41,560 nt of DNA from a virus: positions 1 to 41,560 of IMG/VR virus record IMGVR_UViG_3300020112_000115; one strand, 5' to 3'. Position numbers and translations under genes: made by a program. Below the pieces are notes generated by a model. The model did no database searches, was not told the origin of the DNA, and saw only the letters and a program-made list of their open reading frames with translations. Shown piece by piece: positions 5,545 through 40,215 of the stretch (positions within the stretch are counted from its first letter, which is position 1; the number at the start of each line of letters is the position of its first letter).

Positions 5545-7482
5545 GTGGGTTGGTCTGGTAATAGTACAGTCTTTAGGGCTTACCTTGAAGGGCGTACTGA
5601 TGGAGATGGAAAGAAACCTGTTCATTCCCCTGAAAACAGACGGTATAACCTGATATTCGATGAAGCGTCAAAGTTTGAATGTTTCGGTGCTGTTCTGAAT
5701 GAAGGGTACATTGATATTTCTTTTGACACAAAGGAAATGTACAATACCTTCCTTGATATGGCTGAAGCTAAAGACTGGAAGTGTTTAGCGTTACCTTCCA
5801 CACATGGCGGTCATACCTACTGGAAGAATACAGGCAGGATAATCAAAGGTGGTAAAGATAAGAAATTGGCTGTTGGACTGGTTGCCGATATTCACAGCGG
5901 TTCAACGTACATTCCTCTTTGTGTTCATGGTGTGGAACGCTTCCCCCCTGATTATGAACCTTGGGATGGTGAACAGATTGATGAAGTACCCAATGAACTG
6001 TTGCCTGTAAGAACTAACGCTGATCTTTGGCAGATGGGTAACGGTGAAGGTAGAAATCAGAAATTGTTCAATTACATCCTGACCCTTCAAAGCGCTGGGT
6101 TTGACGTTGAAAATGTTCGGGAAGTAATCAGAACCGCTAACAGGTTCATACTGAAAGACCCGTTGCCTGAAGATGAACTGGAAACCGTTCTTAGGGATGA
6201 AGCATTTCAGAAGCCTGTTTTCTTCAAAGGTTCAACTTTTCTGTTTGATAAGTTCGCTATGTACCTTGTTTCACAGCTTCATATCATGCGAATAAACAAT
6301 CAGATTCACGTTTATCATAACGGCGTGTACCTTTCTGGGTATAGCAGGATTGAATCAGAAATGATAAAGCTGATTCCTGATCTGAAACGGGTACACAGAA
6401 AAGAAGTTCTGGATTATCTTGAAATTCTTTGTTCTGAAAACCATGAAACTATTGAACCCACTTTGATAGCTTTCAGGAATGGTCTGTTGGACTTGCGAAC
6501 AATGGAAATGTTACCCTTCAGCCCTGAACACATTATTACAAACCGTATTGAATGGGATTACAACCCCAACGCCTATAGTGAAACGCTTGACCACACTTTA
6601 GATAGAATAGCCTGTAATGATGAACAAATCAGGATGTTACTTGAAGAAGCGGCTGGTTATACGTTGTATCGAAGGAATGAGTTAGGCAAGGCTTTCATTC
6701 TTACGGGTACTGGTTCAAACGGTAAATCCACTTATCTAAGTGTTCTTAGAAATATGCTGGGTAAGCCGAATATTTCAAGCCTTGATATGAAGATGCTTTC
6801 TGACAGGTTTTCAACCGTGATGATGTTCGGAAAGTTGGCTAATATCGGTGATGATATTTCAGATGAATTTGTTGCTGATACGTCAATTTTCAAGAAGATA
6901 GTAACGGGTGAAACTATCGGCGCTGAACAGAAAGGTCAGCCAAAGTTTGAATTTGAACCGTTTTGTAAGCTGTTCTTCAGCGCCAATAACATACCCCGAA
7001 TGGGTAAAGGGCGTGATTGGGATGCTATCAAACGTAGACTTGTTATTATCCCTTTCAACGCCAAATTCACGAAGAATGACCCCGATTATAAGCCCTTCAT
7101 AATTGATGATCTGAAAACGCAAGAATCTATTGAATATATGATTCGGATAGGCGTTGACGGTCTGAAACGGGTACTTCTATCCAAAGAGTTCACACAGTCG
7201 GTCAAGGTTGATAAGGAAGTTGATGAATACGAAGAATCAAACAACCCTGTATTAGCCTTTATTCATGAGTGTGAAGAAAGAAGCTATTCCATTGAAAACA
7301 ATGAAACGAAAGAAGTTTATCTGAAGTACGTTGGCTTTTGCGCTGATAGCGGCTTGAAAGAAATGTCACAGATAGAATTCAGTCGGGCATTGTGTAGGCG
7401 GTTGGGGCTGGTAACTGTACCCAAACCCAAAAAGGGAAAGGGTCAAGTAAGAGTATTTGAAAGGCGTGGTGATACTGAATGA
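5545..7482 (+). CDS. DNA primase/helicase (prim-pol N-terminus, D5/P4-type SF3 NTPase C-terminus)
   Basis: GTG start follows 'ggaggtg'. Walker A 'GTGSNGKST'. Layout is typical of the phage/plasmid primase P4 family. Confidence 0.8.
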   Translation: MGWSGNSTVFRAYLEGRTDGDGKKPVHSPENRRYNLIFDEASKFECFGAVLNEGYIDISFDTKEMYNTFLDMAEAKDWKCLALPSTHGGHTYWKNTGRIIKGGKDKKLAVGLVADIHSGSTYIPLCVHGVERFPPDYEPWDGEQIDEVPNELLPVRTNADLWQMGNGEGRNQKLFNYILTLQSAGFDVENVREVIRTANRFILKDPLPEDELETVLRDEAFQKPVFFKGSTFLFDKFAMYLVSQLHIMRINNQIHVYHNGVYLSGYSRIESEMIKLIPDLKRVHRKEVLDYLEILCSENHETIEPTLIAFRNGLLDLRTMEMLPFSPEHIITNRIEWDYNPNAYSETLDHTLDRIACNDEQIRMLLEEAAGYTLYRRNELGKAFILTGTGSNGKSTYLSVLRNMLGKPNISSLDMKMLSDRFSTVMMFGKLANIGDDISDEFVADTSIFKKIVTGETIGAEQKGQPKFEFEPFCKLFFSANNIPRMGKGRDWDAIKRRLVIIPFNAKFTKNDPDYKPFIIDDLKTQESIEYMIRIGVDGLKRVLLSKEFTQSVKVDKEVDEYEESNNPVLAFIHECEERSYSIENNETKEVYLKYVGFCADSGLKEMSQIEFSRALCRRLGLVTVPKPKKGKGQVRVFERRGDTE

Positions 7483-8012
7483 TTTACGGCGATACGGCTA
7501 TTGAACACCATATTCTTGAAAAGGGTGGTGTTGTGCAGGATTTACCTTATCTGGTAAATCCTGCTTCCCTGAACATCTGTTTGGGTGATACCTTCCTGAA
7601 GCCAAAAGCAAAGCCTATAAAGCTGGGTGATAAGGTTGAATACACCCGTTGGAAGGTCAAAAAGGGCAAAACCTTCATGCTGTTCCCCCATGATTTTGTT
7701 CTGGCAACTACTAAAGAAGAAATCAAGATGCCTAATAACGTGGCGGCTTTTGTTCAGGGTCGGTCAAGTATTGGGCGTATTGGTTTGACGGTTCAGAACG
7801 CTGGATTCGTTGACCCTGCCTTTCATGGTCACATTACCCTTGAATTGGTCAATGAATCTAATAACGTGATCTTCCTTCCTGTTGGCTATCCCATTGCACA
7901 GCTTGTTTTCTTTGAGTGTACCCCCGTAGCACATGGCTATGATGGCAAGTATAACGGTCAGGTTGAAGCAACGGGTTCAAGAATGTATCTGGACAAAAAG
8001 AAAGGGGATTGA
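7479..8012 (+). CDS. dcd: dCTP deaminase / dUTPase-superfamily protein
   Basis: 'GRSSIGRIGL', 'GFVDPAFHGHITLEL' and 'IAQLVF' match conserved dCTP deaminase blocks. Confidence 0.8.
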   Translation: MIYGDTAIEHHILEKGGVVQDLPYLVNPASLNICLGDTFLKPKAKPIKLGDKVEYTRWKVKKGKTFMLFPHDFVLATTKEEIKMPNNVAAFVQGRSSIGRIGLTVQNAGFVDPAFHGHITLELVNESNNVIFLPVGYPIAQLVFFECTPVAHGYDGKYNGQVEATGSRMYLDKKKGD

Positions 8013-10241: not shown

Positions 10242-10443
10242 GGAAACCACACTTGTTTGTTCACGTTGTGGAAAGCGTGAAAAAGTAAGCCTTGACCCTG
10301 ACAGTAAAAACAGCATTTTGAAGGTTGGTAAACGCTGGGGGTGTACTGGGGTTCTTTATTGCCCCGATTGCATTAAAGTAATGACGGTTGGAACTACCAA
10401 CTATGAAACGGTGTTATCTGTGATATTAAGATACATGAGGTGA
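10234..10443 (+). CDS. Zn-ribbon hypothetical protein
   Basis: 'CSRCGK' ... 'CPDC'. Confidence 0.5.
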   Translation: MNKETTLVCSRCGKREKVSLDPDSKNSILKVGKRWGCTGVLYCPDCIKVMTVGTTNYETVLSVILRYMR

Positions 10444-10448
10444 TAGGC

Positions 10449-11267
10449 ATGATTGATTGTAAGGCTTATGCTTCCGAAATCCTTAACGGTATCAAAGACA
10501 GGGTTTCCAAAGGGGAAACTTACGGAAATCTTGCGGTCATTTCGGTTGGTTACAATCCTGCTTCTGAATCGTATATGAAGGGTAAGAAGAAAGATTGTGA
10601 ATATGTCGGGTTCGGTTTCCACCACTTCAGCTTTACCGAACAGGTAACAACTGAATATCTGGTTCAGTTCGTGCGTGATCTGACTGTTCAGAATAAGTTC
10701 ATGTATGAGAACGGGAAACCGCTGACAGGTGTTATTCTTCAGCTTCCAGTTCCAAAGCATATTAACGCTGAAGAAGTGGTTCGGGCTATTCCCCGTTCGC
10801 TGGATGTGGACGGGTTCAAGCCTGAATCTGATTTCAACCCCTGTACCCCTGAAGCTGTTATGTACATCTTGCGGAAAGAATTAGGTGATTTCACGGGTAA
10901 GTCAGTTCTTTTGATTGGCAGGGGTCAGTTGGTCGGGAAACCCCTGCTTCAAATGCTGATTGATGCTGATATGACCGTAATTCAGGCACACAGTAAGTCA
11001 AAGCCTGAAGATATAAAGATGTTCGGGTTCTATTGTGATGCGGTTATATCGGCTATTGGTAAACCGTGGAAGTATGAAATTGACTTCTGTACCGATAAGG
11101 GCGTAATCATTGATTGCGGAATTAGTCGGGGTGCAGATGGCAAACTTCACGGGGATATTTACCCGAACTGTTGTGACCGTCAAACGCCTGTTCCTAACGG
11201 TGTTGGTCTTATGACCCGTGCAATGTTGGTTCAGCATTGTGAAAAGGTGGTGCTGGATAATGGCTAA
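10449..11267 (+). CDS. folD: Bifunctional methylene-THF dehydrogenase / methenyl-THF cyclohydrolase
   Basis: 'YMKGKKKDCEYVGF', 'GVILQLPVPKHI', 'DVDGF', 'PCTPEAVMYIL', 'GRGQLVGKPL' and 'PVPNGVGLMT' match conserved FolD blocks. ATG lies 6 nt after 'gaggtga'. Confidence 0.85.
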   Translation: MIDCKAYASEILNGIKDRVSKGETYGNLAVISVGYNPASESYMKGKKKDCEYVGFGFHHFSFTEQVTTEYLVQFVRDLTVQNKFMYENGKPLTGVILQLPVPKHINAEEVVRAIPRSLDVDGFKPESDFNPCTPEAVMYILRKELGDFTGKSVLLIGRGQLVGKPLLQMLIDADMTVIQAHSKSKPEDIKMFGFYCDAVISAIGKPWKYEIDFCTDKGVIIDCGISRGADGKLHGDIYPNCCDRQTPVPNGVGLMTRAMLVQHCEKVVLDNG

Positions 11268-11903: not shown

Positions 11904-12272
11904 CCCCAAAATTACAGATGTACCCCCAAAATTACAGATGTATTACAGATGTCCGAATACATCTGTATAGCCCGAAAACCCTTGTAAATCAAGAGTTTTC
12001 GGGGTCAGAATTACAGATGTTACAGATGTAGACCCCCCTATATTATATATTTTTATTAGTTATAGTTTTTGAAATTTGGAAATTGAAAATCAAAAACTAT
12101 GATTTGAAAATATAAAGAAGATTGGGGTACATCTGTATATCTGTAATTATTTCCTTAAAATTGTGCAAGGTGTACAAAATAACAGCTGTTTGTGAGCTGA
12201 TTTATTTGTGCAAAATGCTTATACAGATATGTTCGGAACATCTGTAATACATCTGTATAATCTGTAATTTTG
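11904..12272. repeat. Module A: 12 TACAGAT/ATCTGTA motifs in dyad-symmetric order around an AT-rich core. Inverted paralogue of 36907..37212
   Basis: Forward motifs start at 11913, 11933, 11944, 12012, 12021 and 12222. Reverse motifs start at 11961, 12131, 12139, 12240, 12251 and 12260. Core palindrome is ATAGTTTTTGA (12062..12072) / TCAAAAACTAT (12090..12100). Hairpin at 11971..12003. Confidence 0.9.
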
Positions 12273-12299
12273 GCACTTTCAAAGAATATTTGAAATAAG

Positions 12300-35696: not shown

Positions 35697-35702
35697 GGCG
35701 CT

Positions 35703-35722
35703 GTTACTAACGTGTTACTAAC
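35703..35722 (+). repeat. Tandem GTTACTAAC x2 (11-bp phasing), copy 1
   Basis: gttactaacgtgttactaac. 18 of these bases recur at 35878..35895. Confidence 0.85.
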
Positions 35723-35835
35723 CACCCCGAATTTCAGCGTTTTCAGACGTTATTAAATACCGAAAAAACCCTGAAAATAGGCTTATATCAGGCATTTACA
35801 TAGCGGCTGAATCATGGTATAACAATTCTGGCATA

Positions 35836-35875
35836 GCCCGAAACCCTGTATTTTACGGGGTTTCGGGCGTTTTTT
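35836..35875 (+). terminator. Intrinsic terminator of the late/lysis operon
   Basis: gcccgaaaccc ... gggtttcgggc followed by gtttttt. Confidence 0.8.
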
Positions 35876-35895
35876 GATACTAACGTGTTACTAAC
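35876..35895 (+). repeat. Tandem (A/G)TTACTAAC x2, copy 2 (overlaps the integrase stop codon)
   Basis: gatactaacgtgttactaac. Confidence 0.85.
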
Positions 35896-36896
35896 GCCAA
35901 CGCTTCACGAAGTTCTGAAACGGTCTTATGCGTGTAAACACGTTCACCAACTTCCTTTGATTTATGCCCCATTAGCATATCAATACACACTTTGTTAGCC
36001 CCTGCCGAATCAAGCCTTGATCTAAATGTGTGCCTACATTCATGGGGTGTGTGGGTCATGTTCAAGCCTTTCATGATCTGATTCCAGTATTCATAGTATT
36101 TGGTTGAACAGATGTGTTTTCCGTCAACGCTGAACAGGTATTCATTCCCTTCAGCATATCGGCATTTCACCAAAGGCTGAATCAGGGGGTGAACAGGTAC
36201 AATTCTGTTTTTGCCTGAAGCGGTCTTTGTACCGCCTTTCATAATCATTTGGTCAATGTCAATATCCGAACATTTCAGATTCAACAGTTCCGATATACGC
36301 CAACCCGAATAGATAAGGACTAAAACAGAATCAGCAAAGGGTTCATCTTTGATTTTCCAAAAGGCTTGAATTTCATCTTCAGTAAACGGTTTCTTTGTGG
36401 TTTCGGGTATCGGGTCAGACGTTATCAAATCTGAATAGGCTTTGTTGATTATGTCCAGTTCCAAAGCGAAACGGTCAAGGTGATGGAACAGCGCCTTGAT
36501 AGCGCCTTGGGTGCTGTATCCCTTTCCACAGTTATCAATGATTTCCTGCATATTGAATGATCTGACTTCCCTGTACTTCATTTCCCAAATGGGCTTCAGA
36601 TGGTTGAAAGCAGATTTTAAGCTATGTTGGTTAGATGTTCCCAACTTGGGAAGTTTGACTTGAACCCATTTTTCAAACAGTTCCTTTACCGTGATCTTCA
36701 CGGCATCAACGTTATACGGGTTCTTATTGTATTCGGCTAAGGCAATCAACCCTTCTTTTCTGGTTGCAAAATACCCGATTACATCATAGACAGGATAACC
36801 CTTATCATTGTACCCCTTTGTTTTCCTGACCACAAAAGGGCGGCGGCGGTTTCCTGATAGCTTGACAACTGAACCGTAACCGTTGGGATTCTTCAT
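35880..36896 (-). CDS. int: Tyrosine integrase with AP2-like N-terminal arm-binding domain
   Basis: Catalytic blocks 'RISELLNL', 'HECRHTFRS', 'LMGHKS' and 'VYTH'. N-terminus 'GYGSVVKLSGNRRRPFVVRKT'. Confidence 0.9.
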   Translation of the reverse strand: MKNPNGYGSVVKLSGNRRRPFVVRKTKGYNDKGYPVYDVIGYFATRKEGLIALAEYNKNPYNVDAVKITVKELFEKWVQVKLPKLGTSNQHSLKSAFNHLKPIWEMKYREVRSFNMQEIIDNCGKGYSTQGAIKALFHHLDRFALELDIINKAYSDLITSDPIPETTKKPFTEDEIQAFWKIKDEPFADSVLVLIYSGWRISELLNLKCSDIDIDQMIMKGGTKTASGKNRIVPVHPLIQPLVKCRYAEGNEYLFSVDGKHICSTKYYEYWNQIMKGLNMTHTPHECRHTFRSRLDSAGANKVCIDMLMGHKSKEVGERVYTHKTVSELREALALVTR

Positions 36897-36906
36897 AAAA
36901 TGCCCC

Positions 36907-37212
36907 TTTCGATTACAGATATACAGATTAACTACAGATTAAATAACCGCATCTGTATAGCCGAAAAGCCTTGTAAATAGGGCTTTTTTCTGTTAAATTA
37001 CAGATTATACAGATGTACCCACAACTTCTTTATATTTTTAGATTTTAGTTTTTGTGTGTTTCAAAAACTATTTTTCCTCTAAAAATATATATTATATAGG
37101 GGTTTATCTGTATATCTGTAATGAAATGCCCGAAAAGCCTTGAAAATACGGGCTTTTTGGCTATACAGATGGGTGGAACATCTGTAATTCATCTGTATAT
37201 ATCTGTAATGGT
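36907..37212. repeat. Module B: 12 TACAGAT/ATCTGTA motifs around an AT-rich core. Inverted paralogue of 11904..12272
   Basis: Forward motifs start at 36914, 36922, 36933, 36999, 37008 and 37164. Reverse motifs start at 36951, 37106, 37114, 37180, 37191 and 37201. Core palindrome TAGTTTTTG-tgtgttt-CAAAAACTA lies at 37046..37070. Two hairpins with T-tracts lie at 36964..36990 and 37128..37158. Confidence 0.9.
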
Positions 37213-37219
37213 GTGGGCG

Positions 37220-37248
37220 TTGCCAACGCTTCAAAAATCTGGTATAAT
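37220..37248 (+). promoter_or_regulatory. Sigma-70-type promoter TTGCCA-17-TATAAT (TG-extended)
   Basis: ttgcca (37220..37225), a 17-nt spacer ending in 'tgg', then tataat (37243..37248). Confidence 0.6.
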
Positions 37249-37254
37249 GAAGGG

Positions 37255-37334
37255 TGACAAAGCCCGTGTTCGTGGTTGTTCATGGTGCTGGGTCGTGCGC
37301 TTATTCAGGGTGGTAGCTGAATAAGCGCTTTTTG
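37255..37334 (+). ncRNA. Candidate small RNA of about 80 nt (promoter to intrinsic terminator)
   Basis: No credible ORF. Terminator stem gcgcttattcag / ctgaataagcgc (37297..37328) is followed by tttttg. Convergent with the 3' end of gene 37341..37904. Confidence 0.4.
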
Positions 37335-37340
37335 TTGTTT

Positions 37341-39255: not shown

Positions 39256-39276
39256 CTTGAATTGAGGTGTTACAAA

Positions 39277-39699
39277 ATGCCACATGAACTCTGGGAATTG
39301 AAACAAAAACAATCCCTTCCGTTTCAAGCAAAGGTGTATATGTCCATTGCAAGAATACGCCAATGGTATGATGCCTTTGACGGAAACGTGTATGTTTCCT
39401 TTTCAGGTGGGAAGGATTCAACGGTTCTTCTTCATTTAGTCAGGTCAATTTATCCTGATGTTCCTGCTGTTTACGTTGATACTGGACTTGAATACCCCGA
39501 AATAAAAGCCTTTGTGAAAACCTTTGACAACATAACCATTTTAAGACCTGAAATAAACTTCAGACAGGTTATTGAAAAATACGGTTATCCGATTATTTCA
39601 AAAGACGTTGCTAAGAAAGTTCATTATGCAAGAATGGGTTCTGATTGGGCTTTGAAATGCTTTGAAGGGGTCAACAAAGACGGCACACCTTCAGATTGA
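39277..39699 (+). CDS. PAPS reductase-like (adenine-nucleotide alpha-hydrolase) protein, N-terminal segment ending at an in-frame TGA
   Basis: PP-loop 'VSFSGGKDSTVLLHL'. ATG lies 7 nt after 'tgaggtg'. Confidence 0.75.
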   Translation: MPHELWELKQKQSLPFQAKVYMSIARIRQWYDAFDGNVYVSFSGGKDSTVLLHLVRSIYPDVPAVYVDTGLEYPEIKAFVKTFDNITILRPEINFRQVIEKYGYPIISKDVAKKVHYARMGSDWALKCFEGVNKDGTPSD

Positions 39700-39774: not shown

Positions 39775-40215
39775 ATGAAGAAAAGACCGATTCACAAATA
39801 CGATAAGGAAACTGGTTCAAAACCTTTCCTTGGAACATTGGCAAGTGAATCAGCGCAACGCCAACAGGCATGGTTACAGACTGGTTGCAATGCTTTTGAT
39901 TCAGCATACCAACACAGTAGCCCCTTATCCTTCTGGTTAGAACAGGATGTTCTTCAGTACATCAAAACCAATAATCTTCAGATTGCTTCAGTTTATGGTG
40001 AAGTTCAAGAGAAAGACGGAAAGCTGTTTACAACTGGTTTGGATAGAACAGGTTGTATGTTCTGTATGTTCGGCGCTCATTTAGAGAAATGCCCGAATAG
40101 ATTTCAGAAAATGGCACACACACACCCGTCAATCTATGAATATTGCTTGAAGCCCAAAGAAGAACATGGTTTAGGACTGAAAGAAGTTCTGGACTATCTG
40201 AAAATACCTTATTAG
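39775..40215 (+). CDS. PAPS reductase-like protein, C-terminal segment (same frame as 39277..39699, open from 39700)
   Basis: The frame is identical to the upstream segment. The conserved-looking 'WKFLVDAPFDISSSCCDVMKKRP' starts upstream of the first ATG. C-terminal Cys motif 'GCMFCMFG'. Confidence 0.7.
   Translation: MKKRPIHKYDKETGSKPFLGTLASESAQRQQAWLQTGCNAFDSAYQHSSPLSFWLEQDVLQYIKTNNLQIASVYGEVQEKDGKLFTTGLDRTGCMFCMFGAHLEKCPNRFQKMAHTHPSIYEYCLKPKEEHGLGLKEVLDYLKIPY

Follow-up and report, generated by a model that had tools for sequence, protein, structure and literature searches.

Among the closest described systems, the SaPI origin comprises 6 to 12 short iterons, half of them on each side of an AT-rich center and at least two per side oppositely oriented, and the C-terminal winged-helix domain of SaPI Rep reads these iterons (PMC9371898). 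The Enterococcus phage Abitsa (genus Efquatrovirus) is reported to carry seven iterons around an AT-rich region beside the gene for a PriRep5-like helicase (PMC13517437). In Bacillus phage SPP1, two similar origins made of repeats and an AT-rich unwinding element, oriL and oriR, lie many kilobases apart, one of them outside the replication module (PMC6316719, PMC3485210). In this study, we analyzed the whole 41,560-nucleotide stretch of IMG/VR record IMGVR_UViG_3300020112_000115 (the window), which is a complete, circularly permuted temperate siphophage with a gut Clostridia-type host, and found two modules, A and B, that are probably two copies of an iteron-type replication origin of the SaPI Rep/PriRep5 kind. 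The two-site layout, with one heptamer per genome, is a new element that recurs in at least five genomes, and by analogy it recalls both oriL/oriR of SPP1 and ori/crr of P4. The first-pass annotation had left three candidates standing for module A; the evidence presented here supports the iteron-type origin and speaks against both the attP-type site and the foldback or MITE-like element.

Module A (11904..12273) lies, as initially placed, at the early/late boundary: the last early genes precede it, and the gene for the DUF1492 late regulator follows, with its start 34 bp away. The module is 4.4 kb downstream of the primase-helicase gene and 24 kb from the integrase gene, int. Twelve exact copies of the heptamer TACAGAT, six forward (F) and six reverse (R), span positions 11913-12266, and their positions bear out the reported order F F F R / F F / core / R R / F R R R. 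The outer-left cluster (11913..11967; F at 11913, 11933, and 11944 and R at 11961) has its first two iterons within a 19-bp direct repeat, CCCCAAAATTACAGATGTA. A conserved stem-loop box, CCCGAAAACCCTTGTAAATCAAGAGTTTTCGGGG (11971..12004, plus strand), separates the outer from the inner iterons, and the hairpin noted there earlier is real, with a DNA fold of -12.8 kcal/mol (z = -7.6); this box (CCGAAAA..CCTTG..TTTTCGGGG) recurs in module B and among relatives whose heptamers differ. The inner-left pair (12012..12027, plus strand; F at 12012 and 12021, 9 bp from start to start) and the inner-right pair (12131..12145, minus strand; R at 12131 and 12139, 8 bp apart) enclose a core that is 76% AT (12028..12130) and that we propose as the DNA unwinding element. 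No 60-bp duplex stretch in the window is less stable than positions 12038-12097 of this core (z = 4.6). Direct reading of the core confirms the 11-bp inverted repeat described earlier, ATAGTTTTTGA (12062-12072) and TCAAAAACTAT (12090-12100) with 17 nt between them, and a CTTCTTTATAT box lies on the minus strand at 12110-12120. The array closes with the outer-right cluster (12222..12266; F at 12222 and R at 12240, 12251, and 12260), and the ends of the module are indeed inverted repeats of each other, perfect over 14 bp (ccaaaattacagat, 11906-11919; atctgtaattttgg, 12260-12273).

Module B (36907..37212), which had also been spotted in the first reading, is a second complete copy: its 12 exact TACAGAT heptamers (36914-37207) stand in the same order as those of A, and their spacings differ from the ones in A by no more than a few bases. 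It lies upstream of int (35880-36896, minus strand), 18 bp from the start codon, and about 9.9 kb upstream of the primase-helicase gene. The outer-left cluster (F F F R; 36914..36957) is followed by a left stem-loop box, GAAAAGCCTTGTAAATAGGGCTTTTTTC (36964..36987, plus strand), which has sequence in common with the box in A and folds weakly (z = -1.5). On the other side, a right stem-loop box, CCGAAAAGCCTTGAAAATACGGGCTTTTTGG (37130..37160, plus strand; fold z = -2.9), precedes the outer-right cluster (F R R R; 37164..37207). The inner pairs (left, 36999..37014, plus strand; right, 37106..37120, minus strand) enclose a core that is 77% AT (37015..37105), with a CTTCTTTATAT box on the plus strand at 37025-37035 and an inverted repeat of its own, TAGTTTTTG (37046-37054) and CAAAAACTA (37062-37070), separated by 7 nt. 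Nowhere else in the 41.5-kb genome is the duplex as unstable as in the two AT-rich cores (z = 4.3 to 4.8); in instability, core B ranks second to core A among 60-bp stretches and first among 100-bp stretches. The modules are 79% identical over 306 bp, and their cores align best when inverted (core B against the reverse complement of core A), so that each core has its CTTCTTTATAT box on the side of the neighboring regulatory gene.

TACAGAT has 36 exact matches on the two strands of the whole window, against 4.1 ± 1.9 expected, and none of 100 shuffles reached 36. These matches fall 12 in module A, 12 in module B, and 12 outside both; the first-pass annotation was thus right about two dense modules but not about a near absence elsewhere, since the 12 outside copies compare with about 4 expected for the entire window. 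The iteron itself exceeds 7 bp, reading approximately (A/T)TACAGAT(G/A/T) in the window and GTTACAGAT in relatives. A GC-skew inflection had been suggested as a way of mapping an origin, but GC skew and cumulative skew over the window rise monotonically with no origin signal, and the check is uninformative because nearly all genes lie on one strand. Promoter and terminator scans inside the modules gave counts near shuffle expectation. Comparison of the module with GenBank phages by DNA similarity in distant mode returned no match, and the whole window gave only two short matches to GenBank phages. An Rfam scan of the whole window had no match; a permissive Rfam scan of module B had a miRNA precursor as its sole match, which is spurious and stems from the foldback. 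A tRNA scan found none in the window, and an exact-protein look-up of the integrase found no record.

The proposed initiator is the 645-amino-acid product of the primase-helicase gene (5545..7482, plus strand), which carries the Pfam domains D5_N, DUF5906, Pox_D5, and PriCT_1. It scores 211 bits as a TIGR01613 P4-family primase (cutoff, 108.7) and is a homologue of SaPI5 PriRep5 (PDB 7OLA; E = 1.3e-36). In a search of solved structures, a profile of its C terminus matches the PriRep5 C-terminal domain at 683-747 (E = 1.6e-6) and, less strongly, the winged helix of RFX5 (E = 0.018), which identifies the fold; the protein ends in a winged-helix domain at about residues 575 to 640. In the window, the gene that follows the primase-helicase gene overlaps its stop codon.

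Arrays of this type are linked to initiator genes well beyond the window. TACAGAT arrays occur in about 45 other viral contigs, and in about 38 of these the array starts 5 to 60 bp past the stop codon of an SF3 primase-helicase gene belonging to one of three families (D5_N/DUF5906, BT4734_N/VapE, and DUF3854/DUF5906), and the inner iteron pair, with its spacing of about 8 to 9 bp, is the most conserved feature among the 45 viral loci. A motif-blind test, in which relatives were chosen by protein similarity alone and an inverted heptamer array of at least five copies was scored, found such an array within 5.2 kb downstream in 19 of 26 cases, compared with 3 of 23 in the upstream control. Loci L079, L196, L289, and L069 likewise have the array directly downstream of the primase-helicase gene. 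Among relatives of the primase-helicase, the same architecture is built from other heptamers, including TGTTACG, GTTCAAG, TGTTCCG, AAGTCAAGAT, and others. The closest relatives, L061 and L064, have the TGTTACG version in the same displaced position as module A; a search for a second module in the L061 contig, with a pattern needing intact outer arms, found one module only. Separately, a metagenome scan for the TACAGAT pattern yielded 42 arrays of a different nature: these are short foldbacks located between housekeeping genes in uncultivated bacteria and unaccompanied by related proteins.

The heptamer also appears to co-vary with the C-terminal domain of the primase-helicase. Pairs of relatives with the same iteron have C-terminal domain identity 7 points higher when divergence of the rest of the protein is controlled (0 of 2,000 label permutations), in a comparison that shared ancestry confounds. 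The integrase N terminus gave a smaller positive coefficient (+4.8) in the same test. Between L061 and L066-68, which have different iterons, the body of the protein is 70% identical and the C-terminal domain only 39 to 41%.

Taken against the SaPI origins, the window has a homologous SF3 primase-helicase with a C-terminal winged-helix domain like that of SaPI Rep and PriRep5 (PMC9371898, PDB 7OLA). Each module has 12 short iterons, split evenly, 6 + 6, about an AT-rich center, with inner pairs F-F and R-R around cores of 103 bp (A) and 91 bp (B), and in many relatives the array is directly downstream of the initiator gene, as in SaPIs. In the window itself, module A lies 4.4 kb beyond the initiator gene rather than directly after it, and int has a second full copy beside it. 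The carrier differs as well, being a complete temperate siphophage of gut Clostridia and not a satellite island, and the iterons, whose binding in the window is a prediction, are heptamers or longer, whereas those of SaPIs are penta- or hexamers. Two further conserved features of the window, the stem-loop box that separates outer from inner iterons and the CTTCTTTATAT box that adjoins one inner pair, have not been reported for SaPI origins. Abitsa is likewise a phage with a PriRep5-like self-loading helicase (PMC13517437); unlike the window phage, it is lytic and has seven 10-bp repeats in a single origin near a genome terminus, without an integrase or a second copy.

By the mechanism we propose, the C-terminal winged-helix domain of the primase-helicase would recognize the (A/T)TACAGAT(G) repeats, and hexamers would assemble on the oppositely oriented repeat sets that flank the 91- to 103-bp AT-rich core. 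The core would then melt, allowing the helicase to load itself and its primase domain to prime synthesis. Module A would be the canonical copy at the end of the replication module, separated from its initiator gene through the insertion of about ten small and auxiliary genes, and module B would be a paralogous second copy by the integrase gene that is bound by the same protein. Module B may serve as a second firing origin, or it may be an auxiliary initiator site, acting as a fork barrier in the manner of SPP1 oriR or as a cis partner in the manner of P4 crr.

The main competing reading concerns this second copy. It is possible, though the less probable course, that only A fires and that B is an auxiliary site for the initiator: a fork barrier in the transition from theta to concatemer replication, a looping cis partner, or a sink that titrates the initiator. 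Arrays equivalent to B lie next to int in 50 of 73 viral and 29 of 72 genomic integrase relatives, and copy B is dispensable in many lineages, because about one-third of the viral and more than one-half of the genomic relatives are without a detectable int-proximal array. Two separated arrays with the same heptamer occur in five genomes, namely the window, 3300045988_074900 (L196 and L272), L067, L077, and L318, while the heptamer they share differs from genome to genome, which favors a single binder for the two sites. Such identity at both sites, and the absence of the int-proximal array from many relatives, fit a subsidiary role for B. On the other hand, the anatomy of B is complete, its predicted unwinding core is as unstable as that of A, and a silent and an active copy would be indistinguishable by sequence.

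Precedents for two sites served by one initiator come from SPP1 and P4. In SPP1, one origin-binding protein acts on two similarly organized origins, the second of which has been proposed to stall forks (PMC6316719, PMC3485210), and the fork-barrier model for the switch from theta to sigma replication may be applicable to the second copy here. SPP1 nevertheless differs in its initiator, gp38, a protein of another family that depends on a separate loader and on a DnaB-type helicase; it also has direct repeats, an oriL located inside the initiator gene, and a lytic life cycle. In satellite phage P4, a single initiator, the alpha protein, recognizes two cis sites that lie apart and bear iterons, ori and crr, and requires both of them. 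The iterons of P4 are octamers, and its crr consists of two direct 120-bp repeats, unlike the second complete dyad origin found here. P4 alpha is of the same primase-helicase family as the window protein (TIGR01613), and the two share the domain order of primase, SF3 helicase, and C-terminal winged helix (PMC2777425), but the primase of P4 is DnaG-like, whereas the N-terminal domains of the window protein are of the PriCT_1/D5_N type. It is possible, though improbable on balance, that the int-proximal copy is not a redundant origin but a conserved second docking site for the self-loading primase-helicase at the prophage end, which as a programmed fork barrier or looping partner could switch replication from theta to concatemer and could also couple initiator occupancy to the expression of int and an adjacent conserved small RNA (37255-37335).

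A different explanation is that the arrays are operators of another phage transcription factor, such as an early HTH protein or the DUF1492/ArpU-type regulator itself, and that they gate core promoters for the late regulator (A) and for int and the neighboring small RNA (B). A role in operator or promoter control fits the positions equally well, because both modules are directly upstream of regulatory genes, DUF1492 and int. The array also directly precedes the DUF1492 gene in L061, L064, L066, L072, and L086, and the inverted cores turn the CTTCTTTATAT side toward the flanking regulatory gene in both modules. Core A contains promoter-like hexamers on the plus strand, but such matches are not above shuffle expectation. 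We nonetheless consider operators unlikely. At about 17 loci the TACAGAT array lies between VapE-type primase and helicase genes with no late regulator or int nearby, and in the compact PICI-like loci L289 and L312 it simply follows the primase-helicase gene. Twelve sites placed symmetrically about the least stable DNA of the genome have the anatomy of an origin and not of an operator, and the heptamer appears to track the C-terminal domain of the primase-helicase.

We regard as very improbable the reading in which module B, or both modules, is attP, with the heptamers as arm-type integrase sites and the 9-bp inverted repeat of core B as core-type sites. B does adjoin the integrase gene, arrays upstream of int are common among integrase relatives, and TAGTTTTTG and CAAAAACTA, 7 nt apart, have the core spacing of a tyrosine recombinase. 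For the integrated prophages of relatives, however, this reading is already contradicted: in chromosomal contigs (L297, L313, L315, L320, and L321) the int-proximal arrays keep both arms, and host genes come right after the 3' end of int (tRNA-Lys; a DEAD-box helicase with MurA; a MATE transporter; PNPase with S15). A separate attP-like set lies at 35702-35896, across the int stop codon, with four copies of TGTTACTAACG in two tandem pairs 162 bp apart, and repeat arrays occupy the same int-stop position in two cultured phages, Arawn and Wanderer. Arm-type repeats are read by the N-terminal domain of Int, and therefore co-variation between the two would be expected; Int does not track the heptamer, and its N-terminal 75 amino acids are 69 to 77% identical across phages with unrelated heptamers and more conserved than the rest of Int. 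Most arrays adjoin primase-helicase genes far from int, the inverted repeat of the core is not conserved in relatives, and there are two copies in the window, one of them 24 kb from int, as opposed to a single int-adjacent site.

Equally remote is a MITE reading, in which A and B would be copies of a non-autonomous foldback transposon and a transposase encoded elsewhere would bind their subterminal repeats. The perfect 14-bp terminal inverted repeats and the overall dyad would suit such an element, although a dyad origin would look alike, and short TACAGAT foldback arrays do occur in uncultivated bacteria, intergenic and several per contig; those cellular arrays, however, are without the AT-rich core, the stem-loop box, the CTTCTTTATAT box, and neighboring homologues of window proteins. 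No target-site duplication was seen at the ends of either copy, no transposase is encoded in the window, the copies number only two and are 79% identical, and both positions are syntenic in diverged relatives that use different heptamers. A packaging or partition site was rejected, as the arrays track primase-helicase genes and not terminase genes, and as the phage integrates and does not persist as a plasmid.

The preferred reading, an iteron-type origin in two copies, provides a sequence-level origin assignment and a matching initiator for a large group of uncultured phages of gut Clostridia. It also yields a searchable rule, namely to look downstream of P4/PriRep-type primase-helicase genes for a dyad heptamer array built around the DNA of lowest stability. 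The heptamer would act as a lineage-specific specificity code, and because this code appears to co-vary with a domain of about 60 amino acids, the relatives form a natural data set on how winged-helix domains read DNA; such data could help predict which satellites and phages can share replication proteins. As the int-side second copy is present in at least five genomes, it can be tested whether dual origins like those of SPP1 and P4 are a general strategy, with a fork barrier, looping, and in situ replication from the prophage end as candidate roles. If the int-proximal copy is indeed a second docking site for the initiator, a large clade of phages of gut Clostridia would typically have a two-site origin system.

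In this temperate gut phage, the patterned spacer in front of the DUF1492 gene is probably an iteron origin of the SaPI/PriRep type; a paralogous second copy adjoins the integrase gene. The window spans the entire, circularly permuted genome of a temperate siphophage (42% GC), with a helicase gene divided between its two ends, and its DNA-level relatives in GenBank are only Ruminococcus and human-gut phages. The early replication block encodes PD-(D/E)XK/AAA_24 and DUF669 proteins, a family-B-like polymerase and, at 5545-7482, a primase-helicase of 645 aa. Auxiliary dCTP deaminase and FolD genes come next, then the first array, module A (11904-12273), and beyond it the genes for the DUF1492 late regulator, the terminase, structural proteins and the lysin. 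Further right is the tyrosine integrase gene (int; 35880-36896, minus strand), then, on its 5' side, the second array, module B (36907-37212), and a cI-like repressor gene. Two nucleotide and folate metabolism genes, the dCTP deaminase-like gene and the bifunctional FolD gene (7479-8012 and 10440-11267, plus strand), belong to an insertion of ~4.4 kb that parts the putative origin, module A, from its candidate initiator gene, that of the primase-helicase. Near the right end, adjacent plus-strand ORFs at 39262-39699 and 39775-40215 are consecutive pieces of one PAPS-reductase-like phage family, covering phrog_424 positions 131-243 and 253-367; this gene appears split or frameshifted.

The 41,560-bp window has 36 copies of TACAGAT where dinucleotide-preserving shuffles predict 4.1 ± 1.9; 12 lie inside 11913-12266 (module A) and 12 inside 36914-37207 (module B). 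The first-pass annotation had called the motif nearly absent elsewhere; its concentration in the modules stands (24 of 36 copies), but the 12 copies outside exceed the ~4 expected about threefold. Pairs of opposite-strand copies at 420/505 and 15582/15667 are each exactly 85 bp apart and lie within coding sequence. Heptamer order is identical in the two modules and spacing nearly so: from left to right, three forward (F) and one reverse (R) copy, a spacer of ~50 bp, an F pair 9 bp apart, an AT-rich core of 91-103 bp, an R pair 8 bp apart, a second spacer, and one F and three R copies. The iteron unit extends beyond seven bases. The stem-loop, the 11-bp inverted repeat of the core and the terminal inverted repeat (14 bp) previously read in module A are all present. 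With 79% identity, modules A and B are paralogues and do not merely share binding sites; their cores are mutually inverted, and by nearest-neighbour stability are the two least stable stretches of the genome (z = 4.3-4.8).

SaPI origins have six to twelve short iterons immediately 3' of rep, halved on either side of an AT-rich centre with at least two per side oppositely oriented, and a self-loading helicase reads them through its winged-helix domain (PMC9371898). Modules A and B agree with this anatomy on every described point; whereas the SaPI origin adjoins rep, however, they lie away from the primase-helicase gene. Enterococcus phage Abitsa, which has a PriRep5-like helicase, is reported to share this architecture (PMC13517437). 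The window's primase-helicase scores 211 bits, above the curated cut-off of TIGR01613 (P4-family phage/plasmid primase), and its sole solved-structure match is PriRep5 of SaPI5 (7OLA, E = 1.3e-36). A profile of the C-terminal 90 residues, built from 21 members of the family, matches the PriRep5 C-terminal domain (E = 1.6e-6) and next the RFX5 winged helix. Of the candidates proposed at first pass, the iteron origin is favored by its SaPI anatomy, the PriRep5 homologue and the unstable cores, and also by arrays that follow primase-helicase genes in other contigs.

Scanning IMG/VR with the inner part of the pattern yielded 60 loci, of which ~45 hold clusters of five to nine TACAGAT copies laid out as in the window. 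In about 38 of these, an SF3 primase-helicase gene precedes the array, which starts 5-60 bp past its stop codon; the product of that gene is a homologue of the window protein, of BT4734_N/PriCT_2/VapE type, or of DUF3854/DUF5906 type. A second search, by similarity to the window's primase-helicase only, found relatives (40-60% identity) that lack TACAGAT and have arrays of matching architecture made from TGTTACG, GTTCAAG, TGTTACA, TCAAGAT or TGTTCCG. In 19 of 26 such loci, five or more copies form an inverted array no more than 5.2 kb downstream of the gene, compared with 3 of 23 in the upstream control. In the closest relatives, L061 and L064 (60% identity), the array is 4.4-4.6 kb downstream and directly 5' of DUF1492, exactly the position of module A. 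Whatever the heptamer, a stem-loop box (CCGAAAA..CCTTG..TTTTCGG) is kept in the gap between outer and inner repeats, as is a (C)AACTTCTT(T)ATAT box flanking one inner pair. At L196 2013-2468 (in contig 3300045988_074900), 17 exact TGTTACG copies after the primase-helicase gene look like two complete modules in tandem. Four compact loci (L289, L312, L122 and L301) carry the same integrase and primase-helicase families 1.5-3.5 kb apart, a PICI/satellite-like rather than full-phage layout; where an array was found (L289 and L312), it is directly 3' of the primase-helicase gene.

Among integrase relatives, an inverted heptamer array lies within 1.5 kb upstream of the int start codon at 50 of the 73 viral loci and 29 of the 72 genomic loci, against 2 of 43 and 4 of 58, respectively, in the downstream control. 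Loci L087, L089, L114, L116 and L121 have the module B layout, with a CTTCTTATAT-like box on the int side. Two arrays occur in five genomes: the window, with TACAGAT in both modules; contig 3300045988_074900, whose TGTTACG arrays lie after the primase-helicase gene and upstream of int; L067 (GTTCAAG); L077, where one of the AAGTCAAGAT arrays is 27 bp away from the start of int; and L318 (TGTTCCG). Each genome uses one heptamer, different from genome to genome, and from this sharing we infer that a single sequence-specific protein binds and serves both sites. Beside module B is a candidate small RNA gene (37220-37335, plus strand) with a near-consensus promoter (TTGCCA, 17 nt, TATAAT, TG extension) and a predicted transcript of ~80 nt (12-bp terminator stem, fold z = -5.1). 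Its loop, GGGTGGTAGC, is kept beside the int-proximal arrays of the five loci with the module B layout, and a variant, GGTGTTGCAGC, occurs in L105, L132 and L318; the candidate matches no Rfam family. Several integrase relatives also have, ~3.7 kb upstream of int, an array of 12-13 mostly direct ACCTTGG heptamers (L297 5979-6372, L105 1979-2372, L112 2133-2436), which may be another type of iteron origin.

The primase-helicase C terminus is the candidate reader of the heptamer. Across 24 primase-helicases with identified arrays, we compared the last 62 residues with the rest of the protein; in same-iteron pairs these residues are 7 percentage points more identical than body divergence predicts, an excess equalled by 0 of 2000 label permutations in a test confounded by shared ancestry. 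The equivalent regression on the integrase N terminus also gave a positive term, but a smaller one. The bodies of L061 and L066-68, whose iterons differ, are 70% identical, their C-terminal domains 39-41%; a TCAAG core is common to L077 and the GTTCAAG group, and the C-terminal domains of these two are 60-64% identical. Across heptamer types, the primase-helicase body is more conserved than its C-terminal domain, whereas the N-terminal 75 residues of the integrase stand at 69-77%, against 61-66% elsewhere in the protein, in phages with unrelated heptamers. We consider this contrast more informative than the confounded regression.

It is possible that the modules are instead an operator array of another regulator, as both lie just 5' of regulatory genes, but this leaves unaccounted for the many arrays that merely trail primase-helicase genes and the enclosure of the genome's least stable DNA. 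The attP reading proposed at first pass does not stand. The int-proximal array is whole in chromosomal contigs in which host genes lie directly past the int 3' end: L315 has tRNA-Lys 234 bp off, L321 a DEAD-box helicase and MurA, L320 a MATE transporter, and L297 PNPase with S15. Changes of heptamer are not mirrored in the N-terminal domain of the integrase, and a distinct attP-like site lies in the window at 35702-35896. This site, the probable attP, bridges the lysin gene to the integrase 3' end and holds four copies of TGTTACTAACG in two tandem pairs 162 bp apart, with the int stop codon between; arrays of repeats are also seen at this place in the cultured phages Arawn and Wanderer. The foldback/MITE candidate is dismissed by absent target-site duplications, the wrong copy number and syntenic positions.

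A metagenome scan also returned 42 short TACAGAT foldback arrays (L369-L410) from uncultivated bacteria; in each, a 30-50-nt centre, not AT-rich, separates four F copies from the four R copies after it, and there are several arrays per contig (for example, L375 2962-3078, 5649-5761 and 6177-6405; L382 1557-1700; L398 9097-9197). They are intergenic among housekeeping genes (rpsP, rplJ/rplL, rpmE, murB, nrdD/nrdG and purF), none has a homologue of a window protein nearby, and the motif seems to be used there in a REP- or MITE-like way.

With the modules read as iteron origins, the sequence of module B fits a firing origin or an auxiliary site equally. SPP1 oriL and oriR are alike in organisation and both bound by gp38, and oriR-bound gp38 has been proposed to stall forks and so switch synthesis to concatemers (PMC6316719; PMC3485210). 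That pair is one model for modules A and B. The P4 alpha protein requires both ori and crr, an alternative model for the pair. Alpha has the family and domain order of the window's primase-helicase (PMC2777425). Many integrase relatives lack the int-proximal array, which fits an accessory role for module B. The kind of origin proposed here is already known, and the phage would carry a variant of it because of its duplication, its displaced position and its extra conserved boxes.
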